Of a stretch of DNA of 57,190 bases, positions 10,176-52,711 are shown piece by piece. The notes below the pieces were generated by a model. That model made no database searches. It was not told the DNA's origin and was given only the letters and a program-made list of their open reading frames with translations. The DNA comes from a virus (lineage: Duplodnaviria > Caudoviricetes), in IMG/VR virus record IMGVR_UViG_3300037420_000354, positions 1 through 57,190 of that record, one strand, 5' to 3'. Made by a program: the position numbers and the translations under genes. Every line of letters starts with the position of its first letter. Positions within the stretch are counted from its first letter, which is position 1.

Positions 10176-10353
10176 TTGCCAATTTTTGAGCGGAACAAAT
10201 CATGTTTGTTCATGGACAATGCGATACAAAAATGGTAGAAAAAACAATGCCAACACGCAAATCAACAATGTTCGGGACGAGGGGGTCGCGTGTTCGAATC
10301 ACGCCACTCCGACCAGTTTTCCCGAGTTACGGCAATGATTGCGGCAACGATTG
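10166..10353. repeat. putative integrase arm-type sites: ACGGCAATGATTGC at 10166-10179 and 10329-10342, plus CGGCAACGATTG at 10342-10353
   Basis: exact 14-bp direct repeat on both sides of the att core. Confidence 0.6.
10270..10315 (+). other. attP core = 3' half of tRNA-Pro(CGG)
   Basis: GTTCGGGACGAGGGGGTCGCGTGTTCGAATCACGCCACTCCGACCA: anticodon loop TTCGGGA, T arm, acceptor strand and CCA; no 5' half upstream. Confidence 0.88.
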
Positions 10354-15024: not shown

Positions 15025-15420
15025 ATGGCTGGTGTTACCGTACGCGCGGAATCCTTCCCAAGCAAGGAAGAGATCGAAAAGTTCTGGTCTAAGGTCCGGA
15101 AAGATGGGCATCCTAATGGATGCTGGGAGTGGACGGGCAAGCCCAGCGATGGTTATGGATATTTCTTCTCGAAGCACTTTGGTAAGTCTATTAGGGCTCA
15201 CCGTTTTTCATTCTATCTGGAGCATGGCGAATTGCCTAAATGGCATCCGCATGAACCGATTGGCATTCTTCATAGGTGCGACAATCGGCTTTGCGTCAAT
15301 AATCGCCATCTATTCGCCGGCACTCAAATGGAAAACATGCATGATATGATTGCCAAACAGCGACACAGGCCGCACGGGCAAGTCAAAATTCTCACAGAAT
15401 ATACCTGTGTGGATTCGTGA
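15025..15420 (+). CDS. HNH homing endonuclease (HNH_3 type)
   Basis: FWSKV..GCWEWTG..GYG..RAHRFS...[23 protein letters not shown]. Confidence 0.9.
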
Positions 15421-15425
15421 GATAA

Positions 15426-15457
15426 GTTGCAAATCGCAACGTTCTATGTTTTATAGA
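15426..15457 (+). promoter_or_regulatory. putative promoter of the Y RNA/Ro60 operon with overlapping palindrome GTTGC-AAATC-GCAAC
   Basis: TTGCAA (-35-like) and TTATAG (-10-like) just upstream of the first RNA; inverted repeat 15426-15440. Confidence 0.4.
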
Positions 15458-15461
15458 GCAT

Positions 15462-15535
15462 GCCAATCGTGGTGAAGGTTGCAGCTACTTCTCTTGAAAA
15501 GACCGTGACGCTGCAGTCGCTTGTTCCCGAATGGT
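15462..15535 (+). ncRNA. Y RNA-like RNA 1 (short, no tRNA-like domain)
   Basis: terminal stem CCAATCG/CGAATGG; G-TGGTGAAG...TCGCTTGTTCC-C bulged motif shared with RNAs 2 and 3; upstream of Ro60. Confidence 0.7.
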
Positions 15536-15538
15536 TTG

Positions 15539-15686
15539 AAACTGCATGGCGTGGCGTAGAAGCCGAGTTCATCGATTTGTAATCGAGAGGTCGCCGGTTC
15601 GAATCCGGTCGGGTGGCAACACTCGTAGCTCAGTTGGATAGAGCGCTGAAAAGCTCTCGACTTTGCCTGTTCCCGCCATGCAGTTT
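15539..15686 (+). ncRNA. Y RNA-like RNA 2 (YrlA-type, permuted tRNA-like domain)
   Basis: 13-bp terminal stem AAACTGCATGGCG/CGCCATGCAGTTT; T arm GCCGG-TTCGAAT-CCGGT, acceptor-like stem closed by GCAA, then D arm GCTC-AGTTGGATA-GAGC. Confidence 0.85.
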
Positions 15687-15702
15687 TATCCATTCGGCTT
15701 CA

Positions 15703-15873
15703 TGCCAGCCATTTGGTGAATGCGTGGCGTAGAGAATTCGGTTACTTCGCTTTGGGAGCCGTAGGTCGTTGGTTCAAATCCAACAGGTCCGGTAATCGGA
15801 CCTTAGCTCAGCCTGGTAGAGCAACGTCAATGTACCGTTCTCGCTTTTTCCCGCATTCTCCTGATGGCTGGCA
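15703..15873 (+). ncRNA. Y RNA-like RNA 3 (YrlA-type, permuted tRNA-like domain)
   Basis: terminal stem TGCCAGCCAT/ATGGCTGGCA; T arm GTTGG-TTCAAAT-CCAAC, stem AGGTCCG-GTAAT-CGGACCT, D arm GCTC-AGCCTGGTA-GAGC. Confidence 0.85.
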
Positions 15874-15892
15874 ATCGTCAAAGGAGCCGATA

Positions 15893-17203
15893 ATGCGCAT
15901 CAATACCGCAGCAGCCATTCCCAAGATTTACACCCATGAGGGTGCCGTGGCGAAGCATATTTCGCCCGAGCAGGAACTTCGCCGTTCCGTTCTCTCCTGC
16001 CTCTTGTGGGAGGACAGCTTTTATGAATCCGGACAGGATATTGCCGCTCGCATTTCTGAGACGGCGGCAAAGTGCAGCACGGAATTTGTCTCATCGCTGG
16101 CAATCGAGGCTCGCAATGTTCATGGCCTCCGCCATGCTCCGTTGCTGCTTCTGCTTGATCTCATCCGCCGTGGCGGTGCCGGAGTTTCCGACACCATTGC
16201 GCAGACGATCCGCCGCGCCGACGAAATTGCCGAACTGGTCGCGATCTATTGGAAGGACGGCAAGAAGCCTCTTTCCAAGCAGATGAAGCTTGGCCTTGCC
16301 AAGGCGTTCGGGAAGTTCGGGGAATATCAGCTTGCGAAATACGATCGGGAAGGCGCTGTGCGTCTCCGTGACGTGCTGTTCCTCGCCCATCCCAAGCCGA
16401 AGGATGAAGAACAGGAAGCTTTGTTCAAGCGTGTTGCCGAGCGCCAGCTTGTCACGCCCGATACTTGGGAAGTCGCGCTTTCCGGCGGCGCGAACAAGAA
16501 GGAGACATTCGAACGGCTGATCAAAGAAAACAAACTCGGCTATCTCGCCCTGCTCCGAAACCTACGGAACATGATGGACGCCGGCTGTGATCGAGGGCTT
16601 GTCTCGGAAGCCATCATCGCGAGCAAGGGCGCCGAACTGGTTTTCCCGTTCCGCTATGTCGCGGCAGCGCGTGCATGCCCACAGCTTGAGCCGTACATTG
16701 ATCAGGCGCTTTGCGAGGCGGTTGCCTGCGGCCCTCGCCTGTCTGGCGTGACTGCCGTGCTGGTCGACGTGTCCGGATCGATGGATGCCAAGCTTTCCGG
16801 CAAGTCGGATATGAACCGGATTGACGCAGCGGCAGCGCTGGCTTCGGTAATCAACGGTGACGTTCGAATATTCAGCTTCTCGGAGAGGATCGCCGAAGTT
16901 CCGCCGCGCCGTGGCATGGCAGGGATTGACGCCATCCTGCGTTCACAGCCGCACAGCGGAACCTATCTCGGGGCTGCCGTGGCGTTCCTGAACCAGAACA
17001 TCAAGCATGATCGCCTGATCGTCATCACCGACGAGCAGAGTGCCGACCGAGTACCCGATCCGATCTGCAAGTCGGCCTTCATGATCAATGTCGCCGCCTA
17101 CAAGAATGGCGTTGGCTACGGCAAGTGGACGCACCTAGACGGCTTCTCGGAGTCAATCATCCGGTACATCACGGAAGTGGAAAATGCCGGAATTGTCGGG
17201 TGA
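15893..17203 (+). CDS. rsr: Ro60/Rsr TROVE-domain RNA-binding protein with vWA domain
   Basis: THEGAVA, LLWEDSFYE, EYQLAKY, LRDVLFLAHPKP, TWEVALS, ALLRNLRNM, PFRY; vWA MIDAS DVSGSM, ITDEQ; AAGGAG SD before ATG 15893. Confidence 0.93.
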   Translation: MRINTAAAIPKIYTHEGAVAKHISPEQELRRSVLSCLLWEDSFYESGQDIAARISETAAKCSTEFVSSLAIEARNVHGLRHAPLLLLLDLIRRGGAGVSDTIAQTIRRADEIAELVAIYWKDGKKPLSKQMKLGLAKAFGKFGEYQLAKYDREGAVRLRDVLFLAHPKPKDEEQEALFKRVAERQLVTPDTWEVALSGGANKKETFERLIKENKLGYLALLRNLRNMMDAGCDRGLVSEAIIASKGAELVFPFRYVAAARACPQLEPYIDQALCEAVACGPRLSGVTAVLVDVSGSMDAKLSGKSDMNRIDAAAALASVINGDVRIFSFSERIAEVPPRRGMAGIDAILRSQPHSGTYLGAAVAFLNQNIKHDRLIVITDEQSADRVPDPICKSAFMINVAAYKNGVGYGKWTHLDGFSESIIRYITEVENAGIVG

Positions 17204-17381
17204 AGAACTGAAACAAGCCGGGATACGGCTTTTTGGCGAGCGCGGGTGGCAATCTGCGCTCGCCAAGCATTTGGGAGTCGACCGAACGCAGATATGGCGT
17301 TACGTCACAAACAACAGTGTTCCTGGTCCTGTGGCCGCAGCCGTCTTGTGCTGGCTTAAGGCTGGACGACCTGATGACTAA
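17184..17381 (+). CDS. small XRE/Cro-like HTH protein
   Basis: WQSALAKHLGVDRTQIWRYV HTH; overlaps the end of Ro60. Confidence 0.75.
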   Translation: MPELSGEELKQAGIRLFGERGWQSALAKHLGVDRTQIWRYVTNNSVPGPVAAAVLCWLKAGRPDD

Positions 17382-17386
17382 ACGAC

Positions 17387-17424
17387 AAAAAGCGCCCGGC
17401 TGACCACTGAGGGCCAACCGGGCG
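17387..17424 (-). terminator. intrinsic terminator at the convergence of early and late transcription
   Basis: CGCCCGGTTGGCC...GGTCAGCCGGGCG stem followed by TTTTT on the minus strand. Confidence 0.6.
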
Positions 17425-50612: not shown

Positions 50613-52711
50613 TCAGGCAGCTGAATCCCAAAGGATCACACGTGCGTTGGTGGCGTCTTGGTGGGTCAGGCCGGCACCGCCGAGGTAATCGGAAATCTTC
50701 ACACGGTTTCGCTAAAACCGTGCCGCTCTTGCCAGATGTGGTTCCATCTCAGTCCATGCTTGATGCGATGGATGGTGACCCTCGAAACTCCTGCCACTGA
50801 GGCGACAGAACTTTCAGAGTCTCCGCTTTCCAGCAGATCATGAATGCGGCGTACCTGCGCTGTTGTCAGCACGCTTTGCGCATTCAATTCACCGTAGAGA
50901 TGGCGACCTTTGCTCTTCATGTCGGCGGCATTATCGCCGCTCGTTCCAAGGAAGAGATGCTTCGGGTTGACGCATCGCGGATTATCGCAACTGTGCAACA
51001 CTCCAACCCCATCAGGGATAGGCCCCTCATGAAGTTCATATGAGTATCGATGTGCGTAAATTTGATGCCGTGTCTTGGGCGCTTTGATTTGCCCATAACC
51101 GCGACCTGCGACACTTGCGGTCCATAGCCAGCATTCATCTTCGCCGGCTACTTTGACCTTCTTCCAGAAGCGTTTTTCAAGACCGTTGCCCATGGCGGTA
51201 ATATACCGTGGCAACGTCTTAAAATCTAGCATTTGCTGCCCATGGTTTCCCATGGGACGAGACTATATCTTCACCCGCTAGGCGGGGCTCCGCACTTCGG
51301 GCCGCTTGGCCCTACATGATAGTCGTTGAACCTTCCCCGGTTCTCGGGGCTTGGCTGCTGATTGCCCAATCACAGAACTTTTCAAGCCGTCGCGCTTGCT
51401 TTTCCAAGCTACGCTGTGGCGTTCTGTGCTCTCAGGGGTTTCCAGTCAGTTCACGGAGTTTAGGCTTGGCTATACCTCTCAGTTCAACCAAGCGATGCCC
51501 TTGTCGCGACCATAGTCGCCGGGCAACTTCGCGCGGATTTCCTCAGGGATGGCCGGCGCTTCCAGAACGGTGTCCGAGCCCATGAACAGAGCCCAAGAGG
51601 ACTTCCCGTTGTTCCAGTCGTCGGCAACGGCGTCATAGACGTAGTTGGCGGAACCGGAGGTCAGGTTGAACGCCGCGTCATTGGCGTGACCCTTCGGGAT
51701 TTCGTTCTGCTCGATCCAGCGGATCGATTCGTAGCGGCCGACTTCGCCCTTGAAGATCAGCTGGATACCAGTCTCGCTGTACTGGTGAATGGTCTCCAGG
51801 CTGTTCTTGAAAGTGCGCATCGTCGTGGCATGAGTGACCGCAACATAGTCATCCCCGTCATATGCGGGAATGTTTCGATCCTTCATGATATCGGAAATGG
51901 CCTTGATGTGGCCGGTGCCGAGTTCGACGTTGTTGGTGGTCGCCGTCGCGTTGTTGGTGGTCAGCGTGACAGCGGTTGTCGAGGTGCCGGATGTCGGCGC
52001 CACGCGAAGCGGCGTCTGGAACATCTGGTAACCGACGAGACGGTCCAGCGTTTGACGTGCGTCGTCGCGGAGGGTCTGGTCGATGATGTCCTTGACATCG
52101 ATTTCCCCGAGATTTTCGAGGAGCCCGGTGTACGGTACAGAGTTCAGTTTTGTTATCGCAGAGCCGTTTACTCTCTGCTTCTGCACTTCGTCAGTGCAGC
52201 TCGGACTATATCATCGCCAATGGCATGGCGTAGGGCGCTCGTGGACGGGTTATTCTTTCGTCACCGTCTAGTCTCTGGACCTTCCGCATCCCTGAGCCTT
52301 TCGGCCTACATATGCGGCTTGGCTGCTGATTACCCTCGCCTCTCGGCGGTGGGGCTTCCCAGCAATTCACCCTATTTTCAAGATCGGGTAGCGTTGGGAG
52401 ACGCTGAACCATCCCGATCAGGCGGCTAATCTATAACCGAATTCACCGATGGTCAGGCTTGCCTGGCCGATGGTGAAGTTTGTTTCCGGCATGCTCTGCT
52501 GCTCATCGATCGGGCCGCCGCGCTTGTTGAGCTTGGAGAACCGATCCCAGCGGAAGGTGTTGCCCTTGTGCAGGCCGATTGCCTTGTCGGAGGCGTCGGC
52601 GAGATTGCGGAGCTTGGTCCGCGGCTGCAGTTCGAAGCGGAGGTGGTCAGAGAGGTTGTCGGAATAGAGATAACCGCCCTGGGTGTTGACTGACCAAAGT
52701 TGTCCGGCCAT
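50613..52711 (-). CDS. major capsid protein (N4 gp56-like), spliced: exons 52711-52436, 52144-51487, 50689-50613; 336 aa
   Basis: in-frame joins IGEFG|NSVPYTG and GRDKGIAW-Y|YLGG; GEVGRYESIRWIE; located after scaffold and portal. Confidence 0.88.
50690..51486 (-). mobile_element. group I intron 2 (797 nt) with HNH ORF
   Basis: 5' exon ends CTTGGT, IGS GAGGTATAGCCAAG (P1 U-G pair; P10 with ATTACCTC); Q AATCAGCAG, R GTTCAACGACTA, S AAGATATAGTC; terminal G. Confidence 0.9.
50699..51193 (-). CDS. intron-encoded HNH homing endonuclease
   Basis: FWKKV...CWLWT...GYG..AHRYS...VLHSCDNPRCVNPKHL..GT..DN..DM..KGR plus C-terminal HTH. Confidence 0.9.
   Translation of the reverse strand: MGNGLEKRFWKKVKVAGEDECWLWTASVAGRGYGQIKAPKTRHQIYAHRYSYELHEGPIPDGVGVLHSCDNPRCVNPKHLFLGTSGDNAADMKSKGRHLYGELNAQSVLTTAQVRRIHDLLESGDSESSVASVAGVSRVTIHRIKHGLRWNHIWQERHGFSETV
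52145..52435 (-). mobile_element. group I intron 1 (291 nt, no ORF)
   Basis: 5' exon ends in U (TTCGGT); P AATTGCTGGGAA, Q AATCAGCAG, R GTCCAGAGACTA, S ATGATATAGTCC; ends in G before AAC. Confidence 0.9.

Follow-up and report, generated by a model that had tools for sequence, protein, structure and literature searches.

A Ro60 gene and the array of small RNA units in front of it were analyzed in the virus record IMGVR_UViG_3300037420_000354 of IMG/VR (Duplodnaviria; Caudoviricetes); the window is the whole of that record, 57,190 bases, estimated to be 89% complete. The Ro60 open reading frame (ORF; 15893 to 17203, plus strand) encodes 436 amino acids, the translation of which matches the Pfam families TROVE (E = 7e-14) and VWA_2 (E = 1e-6), the latter covering a vWA domain. 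Upstream of it, on the same strand, lie three structured units, RNA1 (15461 to 15535), RNA2 (15541 to 15684, with a closing stem formed by 15541 to 15551 and 15674 to 15684) and RNA3 (15715 to 15861), the last of which ends about 30 nucleotides (nt) before the Ro60 ATG at 15893. The 5' sequence GUGG(C/U)G(U/A)AG, UACUUC or UUCAUC, and the 3' sequence UUCCCG are common to all three units, and the 5' GUGGUGAAGG and 3' UUGUUCCCG motifs of RNA1 are also found in RNA2 and RNA3. Compared by eye with GNCGAAN0-1G, the Ro60 contact proposed by Chen et al. in 2014 (PMC4201824), RNA2 and RNA3 (both GGCGUAG) and RNA1 (GGUGAAG) show one mismatch each, and L112, a locus from a 3.7-Mb genome assembly, has GGCGAA. 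ARAGORN found no tRNA genes in the window.

RNA2 (15586 to 15647) and RNA3 (15760 to 15827) gave partial matches of 40.1 and 38.3 bits to the Rfam family YrlA (RF02553; gathering score, 69), spanning only model positions 24 to 84 and 23 to 86 of 114, that is, the T arm, the acceptor stem and the D arm, and are therefore YrlA-type Y RNAs. The tRNA model RF00005 scored them at 21.8 and 16.2 bits and the tRNA-family threshold (gathering score, 29) was not reached, and R1, a covariance model restricted to the variable loop, T arm, acceptor stem and D arm, scored them at 62.7 and 61.8 bits. We consider it highly probable that the effector module of both RNAs is a complete, circularly permuted tRNA mimic. 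A first-pass annotation, made from the sequence alone, had flagged in each of the three units, at the same position, a short stem with a loop resembling that of a tRNA-Phe, -Thr or -Pro anticodon arm, and had read the array as Ro60-stabilized decoys or sensors for tRNA-cleaving defences. The flagged sequences are indeed present (TC-TTGAAAA-GA at 15492 to 15502, TCGA-TTTGTAA-TCGA at 15572 to 15586 and GC-TTTGGGA-GC at 15749 to 15759) and each is preceded by TACTTC or TTCATC; their position is the same relative to the UACUUC motif and not otherwise. For RNA2 and RNA3 the likeness to an anticodon arm proved stronger than claimed, with an exact tRNA register and composite 5-bp stems. The structural premise of the decoy interpretation thus holds for these two of the three RNAs and fails for RNA1. 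The triplets can be named after Phe, Thr and Pro as had been done, which does not establish a tRNA identity.

In RNA2, the UUCAUC sequence (15568 to 15573), a variant of YUAY/UACUUC, contributes its last C (15573) as tRNA position 29. The anticodon-arm mimic (15573 to 15587) consists of C29, G30 and A31 (15573 to 15575), the loop UUUGUAA (15576 to 15582) and positions 39 to 43, UCGAG (15583 to 15587). It is followed by the tRNA body (15588 to 15645), made up of the variable loop AGGUC (15588 to 15592), the T arm (15593 to 15609), a GCAA-closed acceptor stem (15610 to 15625), UA (15626 to 15627), the D arm (15628 to 15644) and N26 (15645). Positions 27 and 28 (CU, 15646 to 15647) then pair with G15587 and A15586, in trans with respect to the hairpin. 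RNA3 is built alike: UACUUC (15743 to 15748) and the arm together occupy 15743 to 15762, with G30 and C31 at 15749 to 15750, the loop UUUGGGA at 15751 to 15757 and positions 39 to 43, GCCGU, at 15758 to 15762; AGGUC (15763 to 15767), the T arm (15768 to 15784), a 7-bp acceptor stem with a 5-nt loop (15785 to 15803), UA (15804 to 15805), the D arm (15806 to 15822) and N26 (15823) form the tRNA body (15763 to 15823), after which positions 27 to 29 (ACG, 15824 to 15826) pair in trans with U15762, G15761 and C15760. YUAY occurs as UUAC (15742 to 15745) in RNA3 and as the variant GUUC in RNA2.

The 5-bp stem of RNA2 comprises C15646-G15587, U15647-A15586, C15573-G15585, G15574-C15584 and A15575-U15583. 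The RNA3 stem, which had been described as only 2 bp long, has five perfect pairs when the strand after the D arm is counted (A15824-U15762, C15825-G15761, G15826-C15760, G15749-C15759 and C15750-G15758); the Rfam YrlA alignment of RNA3 likewise pairs CGU with ACG, and a weak RF00005 alignment (15550 to 15611; 21.8 bits, E = 0.064) placed UCGA-UUUGUAA-UCGA as the anticodon arm of RNA2. In both RNAs, the distance from the loop to the T arm is 5 stem nt plus the 5-nt AGGUC, as in the tRNA register, the T stem has 5 of 5 pairs and the D stem 4 of 4, and the acceptor closure has 6 pairs in RNA2 and 7 in RNA3. Both thus show the features of a tRNA anticodon arm in its setting: a 5-bp (here composite) stem, a 7-nt loop, U33, a purine at position 37, a variable loop of 4 to 5 nt and a T arm. 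RNA2 had a fold z-score of -3.8, and the constrained tRNA-like fold of RNA3 (-45.9 kcal/mol) lay 1.7 kcal/mol from the minimum free energy (MFE) fold (-47.6 kcal/mol).

Read in this way, the 5' part runs from the 5' strand of the predicted Ro60-binding stem through UACUUC, the inner 5' anticodon strand and the 7-nt loop to the 3' anticodon strand, and the 3' part from AGGUC through the T arm, a loop-closed acceptor stem without a CCA end, the D arm, N26, positions 27 and 28 (or 29) and an A-rich linker to the 3' strand of the Ro60-binding stem. In this order the Ro60-binding stem interrupts the anticodon stem as a graft in its 5' strand, so that the anticodon stem is assembled from a trans part and a cis part.

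To place this architecture among relatives we assembled modules with R1, so that the tested region was not used in finding them. R1 gave 101 hits in 49 sources; a pattern with a fixed stem and seven free loop letters gave 50 matches in 49 further IMG/VR loci, in 47 of which R1 made another 101 hits. After removal from these 202 hits of three duplicate loci and of hits without a recognizable T loop or near a locus end, 177 were parsed, 112 of which had a closed acceptor stem and no ARAGORN tRNA start following; 104 were unique. A T.C.TC motif was present in 100 of the 104, and the four without it, which look like real tRNAs, were set aside, leaving 100 modules, 61 ascertained independently of the arm (here called unbiased) and 39 found by the pattern.

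When a local (cis) hairpin of 5 bp and 7 loop nt was required to stop 4 or 5 nt short of the T stem, 36 of the 61 unbiased modules had at least 4 of its 5 pairs and 20 had all 5, compared with means of 11.2 and 1.44 and maxima of 27 and 7 in 2,000 shuffles. Among all 104 modules, pattern-found ones included, 62 perfect stems stood in register with a 4- to 5-nt variable loop and 0 to 5 in nine other registers; by loop length, 7 nt gave 62 perfect stems and lengths of 3 to 6, 8 or 9 nt gave 0 to 4.

Trans pairing joins the three nt downstream of the D arm and N26 to the three nt immediately preceding the variable loop. Pairs 27-43 and 28-42 were both formed in 42 of the 61 unbiased modules (4 to 14 at eight wrong offsets) and all three trans pairs in 21 (0 to 4 at wrong offsets); the first two were also formed in 38 of the 39 pattern-found modules. 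With the stem taken as trans pairs 27-28(29) plus cis pairs (29)30-31, it was perfect in 37 of the 61 modules and had at least 4 pairs in 44, whereas a cis-only stem was perfect in 20. Covariation was assessed in 40 modules picked by spacing alone, against 2,000 partner shuffles. The trans positions 27-43 were paired in 37 of 40 modules by 4 pair types (shuffle maximum, 32) and 28-42 in 38 by 5 types (maximum, 29); the cis positions 30-40 were paired in 37 by 5 types (maximum, 29) and 31-39 in 37 by 4 types (maximum, 27). All four beat every shuffle. The alternative cis pairs did not, 27c-43 being paired in 32 of 40 (maximum, 35) and 28c-42 in 31 of 40 (maximum, 31). Our first reading, a cis-only hairpin, was dropped in favor of the composite stem because its outer pairs did no better than shuffles. 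In a MAFFT alignment of the same 40 modules, which mis-registers those with a 4-nt variable loop, changes on both sides numbered 13, 13, 19 and 7 for 27-43, 28-42, 30-40 and 31-39, respectively. The ACG/CGU trans pairs of RNA3 are replaced by CUG/CAG in locus L003, CAU/GUG in L004, AGG/CCU in L048 and GUC/GGC in L043; L003 has the same UUUGGGA loop as RNA3, but its positions 41 to 43 are CAG and pair with CUG after the D arm.

The loops carried a tRNA-like signature. Of 72 arms, 69 had U33, 71 had a purine at 37, 69 had A38 and none had G32; among the 33 unbiased arms, the counts for the first three features were 31, 33 and 32. These 72 arms held 44 distinct loops and 29 triplets, with A32 in 15. 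Of 27 loci ascertained by Ro60 that had at least one module, 21 had at least one perfect arm. In all 15 arrays with two or more perfect arms the triplets differed, and 10 of the 15 combined one NNNGGA loop with one NNUAA loop. G37 accompanied G36 in 10 of 10 distinct loops and was otherwise present in 1 of 34 (Fisher P = 4e-9, which ignores phylogeny). As proof of a tRNA grammar this association was rejected, being confounded by two co-occurring paralogue types and uncorrected for kinship; two old paralogue types may account for much of it.

Rates of change were counted in 28 independent related pairs that diverged by up to 35% over the rest of the unit, only six of them by up to 25%. Position 33 differed in 1 of 28 pairs, position 37 in 3 and position 38 in 1, position 36 in 8, and positions 32, 34 and 35 in 14, 16 (0.57) and 19 (0.68). 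The linker after position 29 had 148 differences in 324 comparisons (0.46), the acceptor hairpin 202 in 612 (0.33) and the 5' flank 216 in 673 (0.32). Judged from these sequences, positions 32, 34 and 35 are free or only slightly accelerated and positions 33, 37 and 38 are held. Diversifying selection on the triplet is not taken as demonstrated, since positions 34 and 35 are only modestly faster than linkers. In an earlier contrast, the CcrColossus and CcrPW orthologues differed at 2 of 3 triplet positions and at 0 of 58 other compared positions, a comparison inflated by counting positions fixed by the search pattern as part of the rest. The expectation of the first-pass annotation that the triplet would vary while U33 and the purine at 37 hold and the stem covaries is thus borne out across relatives of RNA2 and RNA3, not for RNA1. 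Locus L003 (2330 to 2475) has a single tRNA-like Y RNA with a body like that of RNA2 and an arm, UUCGC-UUUGGGA-GCC, like that of RNA3, and L093, 12% diverged from L003, has a UGU arm instead; these comparisons with the window suggest exchange or replacement of whole anticodon arms.

From the structure, a protein that reads the anticodon arm would be the likely partner of the module. Ro60 would hold the RNA by its basal stem and the entire L-shaped tRNA body, its loop forming a canonical U-turn, would be presented to a tRNA-recognizing protein that also reads the anticodon arm, with a modification, processing or repair enzyme or a nuclease as candidate partners; loop geometry would be needed for presentation, and the triplet would be weakly constrained or unconstrained in most lineages. 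What is observed is the architecture with its conservation and covariation, and taken jointly with a function as a generic tRNA bait the architecture seems to us moderately probable. We rank the generic bait first and an anticodon-specific role second; the latter would suit the varied triplets and the arrays, for which drift of the triplets is an equally fair account.

Several findings speak against the permuted mimic or its use as a generic bait. Both YrlA scores fall under the gathering score. The tRNA-like fold of RNA2 lies 15.5 kcal/mol above the nearest-neighbor MFE (-48.0 versus -63.5 kcal/mol) and MFE folding did not recover it; the shortfall is due to a window-specific competing pairing of 15583 to 15589 with 15654 to 15660, which is absent in relatives. 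A perfect composite arm is missing from 24 of the 61 unbiased modules, several of which have deletions there, so the arm is dispensable for some Y RNAs. The units are phylogenetically related, and significance is therefore exaggerated by the shuffle controls. Some UGU loops are the same in phages with Ro60 proteins only about 50% identical to one another, a hint that some lineages do constrain the triplet, which runs counter to weak constraint. Five public sequencing runs each contained just 0.04 of the sampled words. The competing pairing in RNA2 is a perfect 7-nt complement (TCGAGAG/CTCTCGA) that involves the anticodon arm and the D arm, and it may represent an alternative conformer.

A more specific reading, that the loops copy particular host tRNA anticodon loops so that the Ro60-bound RNA binds, or is cut by, a defence nuclease and the array covers several specificities as a decoy, competitive inhibitor or sensor, we hold only tentatively. 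The constancy of loop geometry while the triplet varies (34 and 35 differ in 16 and 19 of the 28 pairs, 33 and 38 in 1 each), the 29 triplets, the different triplets in all 15 multi-arm loci, 10 of them combining NNNGGA and NNUAA loops, and the CcrColossus/CcrPW contrast, inflated as it is, would all suit such baits, and so would the tie of G37 to G36. This tie agrees with the G36-G37 and U36-A37 contexts of the m1G37 and t6A37 enzymes. The persistence of identical UGU arms across diverged phages and the frequent position of Ro60 loci in or beside phage tRNA arrays would suit such baits as well. Set against this, positions 34 and 35 exceed the linkers so modestly that neutral drift is consistent with the counts, the 36-37 association may reflect two old co-occurring paralogue lineages, 24 of 61 modules lack a perfect arm, the outer stem is set by the UACUUC motif and is no copy of a tRNA stem, 15 of the 72 arms have A32, and Gln- and His-like triplets carry G37. 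Real bacterial Gln and His tRNAs are unlike these G37-bearing loops. The arm also occurs in loci from bacterial genome assemblies, and RtcB (PF01139) was not found in the 57-kb record, which is an estimated 89% complete. Published observations fall on both sides: Hughes et al. (2020; PMC7790460) propose that YrlA's tRNA-like domain could competitively inhibit an SOS-induced anticodon nuclease, and report that Salmonella YrlA, which has no such loop, was not cut by it. The decoy or inhibitor idea is therefore not new.

Extended to the family, the specific reading would make most YrlA-type Y RNAs, of phages and bacteria, full-length permuted tRNAs that hold a programmable loop on Ro60, with arrays that typically join a G36-G37 and a U36-A37 member, tRNA-like modification, and use as anticodon-specific baits, whether inhibitors, sacrificial decoys or cleavage sensors; this we regard as rather unlikely. 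If it were true, triplet switching would track an arms race with host tRNA-targeting defences.

It is improbable that the arm is an evolutionary relic, that is, that Y RNAs descend from tRNA genes and the arm is a stable junction-closing helix with a functionless loop sequence. Loss of the perfect arm from 24 of 61 modules, in some by deletion, the drift of positions 32, 34 and 35 near linker rates, and the description of Salmonella YrlA as lacking the loop (10.1101/312249) would fit a relic. A helix cap, however, needs no exact 7 nt, U33, purine 37 or A38, and the last three are retained by 69, 71 and 69 of the 72 arms, with differences in no more than 1, 3 and 1 of the 28 related pairs, G is never found at position 32 in 72 arms, and 7-nt loops gave 62 perfect stems against 0 to 4 for lengths of 3 to 6, 8 and 9.

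The published assignment, which treats the hairpin as a variable arm ("V") like that of class II tRNAs and takes the stem toward the Ro60 site for the anticodon stem, appears very improbable for these RNAs. Chen et al. (2014; PMC4201824) drew it in this way, with T, D and AS stem-loops and a "V" arm begun by a conserved YUAY, in their account of YrlA as a mimic of the D arm, T arm and acceptor stem, and in the Salmonella crystal structure of Wang et al. (2018; 10.1101/312249) the anticodon stem (nt 15 to 27 and 83 to 93) continues toward the Ro60 stem; that RNA is stated there to lack "the anticodon loop." In the modules studied here, by contrast, the hairpin lies 5' of positions 41 to 43, which pair with 27 to 29, and not between 43 and the T stem; a segment of class-I length (4 to 5 nt, usually AGGUC) follows it; its loop has 7 nt with U33 and purine 37; and a linker of 8 to 11 nt separates position 29 from the lower stem. 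That the units are permuted or split tRNA genes processed to working, chargeable tRNAs we find barely credible: the 3' half comes before the 5' half, no tRNA element is missing and, in the data of Chen et al. (PMC4201824), RNase P cleaves Mycobacterium smegmatis YrlA, to which CCA is added, yet the acceptor stems are closed by 4- to 5-nt loops, that of RNA2 being only 6 bp, the window has no tRNA by ARAGORN, the anticodon stem is interrupted by a long inserted helix, and the units carry Y RNA end motifs beside Ro60.

Against known systems, the permuted tRNA mimic of RNA2 and RNA3 compares as follows. With YrlA (RF02553) they share the place beside Ro60, the permuted succession of T arm, loop-closed acceptor stem and D arm, YUAY, and 2 to 3 pairs that join the strand preceding the variable loop to the one following the D arm; as published, Salmonella YrlA differs in having no hairpin at that site and the other YrlAs in having a "V" hairpin read as a variable arm, where we place an inner anticodon stem with a 7-nt U33/R37 loop (R, purine). 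Deinococcus radiodurans Yrn1 is also a Y RNA with a T-arm-like element, for which Chen et al. (2014) drew a possible "anticodon arm" with a 5-bp stem; as drawn, it has a 6-nt loop, lies between T-like and D-like parts, lacks a variable arm and has another orientation. The turnip yellow mosaic virus tRNA-like structure and tmRNA-SmpB similarly combine an L-shaped tRNA fold with a stand-in for the anticodon arm, but have free CCA ends and are aminoacylated, whereas the acceptor ends of RNA2 and RNA3 are closed and a protein-binding helix is grafted into the anticodon stem. Red-algal circularly permuted tRNA genes encode the 3' half before the 5' half and yield normal tRNAs through a circular intermediate; the order is alike in RNA2 and RNA3, with no sign of such processing. 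Phage tRNAs that replace those cut by host defences are working tRNAs with varied anticodon loops, often in arrays, whereas RNA2 and RNA3 are not chargeable as encoded and are tied to Ro60. A full-text literature search, the scope of which did not include two reviews (2018 and 2020) and the supplements of Chen et al. (2014), where the hairpin of phage YrlAs could already be described, returned no anticodon-loop mimic or decoy array in Y RNAs. The hairpin itself was already known, and its placement as inner anticodon stem, the composite stem and the loop signature appear to be new.

What the tRNA-like module of Y RNAs in bacteria and phages interacts with, and to what end, has been a question since 2014, and the statement that YrlA "lacks the anticodon loop" came from the one solved structure. 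If most members carry a composite anticodon stem with a canonical loop, candidate partners would narrow to anticodon-arm readers, among them anticodon nucleases, modification enzymes of positions 37 and 34 and repair ligases, and the published suggestion that YrlA inhibits an anticodon nuclease would become directly testable by loop-swap mutants.

RNA1 is of another kind. It has UACUUC at 15486 to 15491 and the flagged TTGAAAA at 15494 to 15500, but no T arm, acceptor stem or D arm: neither Rfam YrlA nor R1 matched it, so no tRNA-like body was detected. Aligned with L003, L004 and L005, whose Ro60 proteins are 80%, 77% and 64% identical to that of the window, it kept UACUUC and the 3' GA-AAC-AC, whereas the flagged segment, in which an anticodon-like loop had been seen, was not kept and differed in sequence and length; the whole loop measured 24, 23, 23 and 21 nt, neither the 2-bp stem nor the U at the second loop position was kept, the latter being C or G in two relatives, and L005 had a 2-nt deletion. 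Y RNA end motifs without a tRNA-like module are also found in YrlB and other short Y RNAs, and by analogy only RNA1, a short Y RNA in which we see no anticodon-like element, may be classed as YrlB-like.

Sequences like RNA2 (about 77% identity by blastn) occurred in 67 phage records, including Xanthomonas and Caulobacter phages; a scan of IMG/VR for Ro60 gave 40 loci, and tblastn found homologues in 97 GenBank phage records. Ro60 loci often lay within or beside phage tRNA arrays. In Xanthomonas phage 10KY502B an RNA2-like sequence upstream of the Ro60 homologue is annotated as tRNA-Thr, and in CcrColossus a run of eight units stands upstream of the TROVE gene, one of them annotated as tRNA-Gln. 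Three GenBank phage records carry such annotations on Ro60-adjacent Y RNA pieces (L001, 2500 to 2567, Thr; L002, 2171 to 2238, Gln; L043, 2266 to 2340, Ser), and phage tRNA counts are therefore inflated; ARAGORN likewise calls tRNAs on several Y RNA modules, e.g., in L001, L004, L028, L040 and L043. One CcrColossus unit (L002, 2371 to 2470) has, by eye, UACUUC, a hairpin with CUGCAAAU and a 4-bp T-like arm, without an acceptor stem or D arm. In crAss-like phages (crAss001, L047, 4238 to 4509; L034, L036 and L038) the units with UUACUUC are found downstream of Ro60; a T arm is present in them, mostly with no closed acceptor stem or D arm, and they look like a different Y RNA design.

Among loci from genome assemblies, L112 has an Rfam YrlA match of 69.4 bits beside a weak TROVE/vWA match and an arm in which AGG and CCU pair in trans, the cis stem has 2 bp and the loop reads CUAAUAA; the arm of L132 has the loop AUCCUAA; and L134, beside a Ro60 homologue, has the trans pairs and no cis hairpin. 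On the sequences of these few loci, positive in L112 and L132 and negative in L134, the arm occurs in bacterial genome assemblies, at sites that may be prophages, and is probably not confined to phages. Searches with Rfam YrlA in 151 genomes from one class and 151 from one phylum gave 1 and 0 hits above the cut-off, weaker hits being mostly tandem tRNAs, and a Ro60 scan of genome contigs gave only 6 loci.

A promoter scan of 15300 to 17400 found none, and Pfam searches of the ten neighboring ORFs returned only an HNH endonuclease, Ro60 and a beta-helix protein. The HNH-type ORF (15025 to 15420, plus strand), whose PF13392 match (E = 6e-5) was just under the cut-off, immediately precedes the Y RNA array, and crAss001 likewise has an HNH gene near its Ro60. 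Just upstream of RNA1, at 15426 to 15440, is an inverted repeat, GTTGCAAATCGCAAC, which was terminator-like in the scan, with no sigma-70 promoter nearby; L003 conserves most of this region and L004 part of it. At a distance from the Ro60 locus, R1 gave a weak match at 10283 to 10334 (plus strand; 18.4 bits, E = 0.046) with a perfect T-arm-like hairpin, GCGTG-TTCGAAT-CACGC. Two group I introns, about 700 nt apart on the minus strand (51239 to 51499 and 52181 to 52445), scored 76.1 and 61.7 bits, above the Rfam gathering score.

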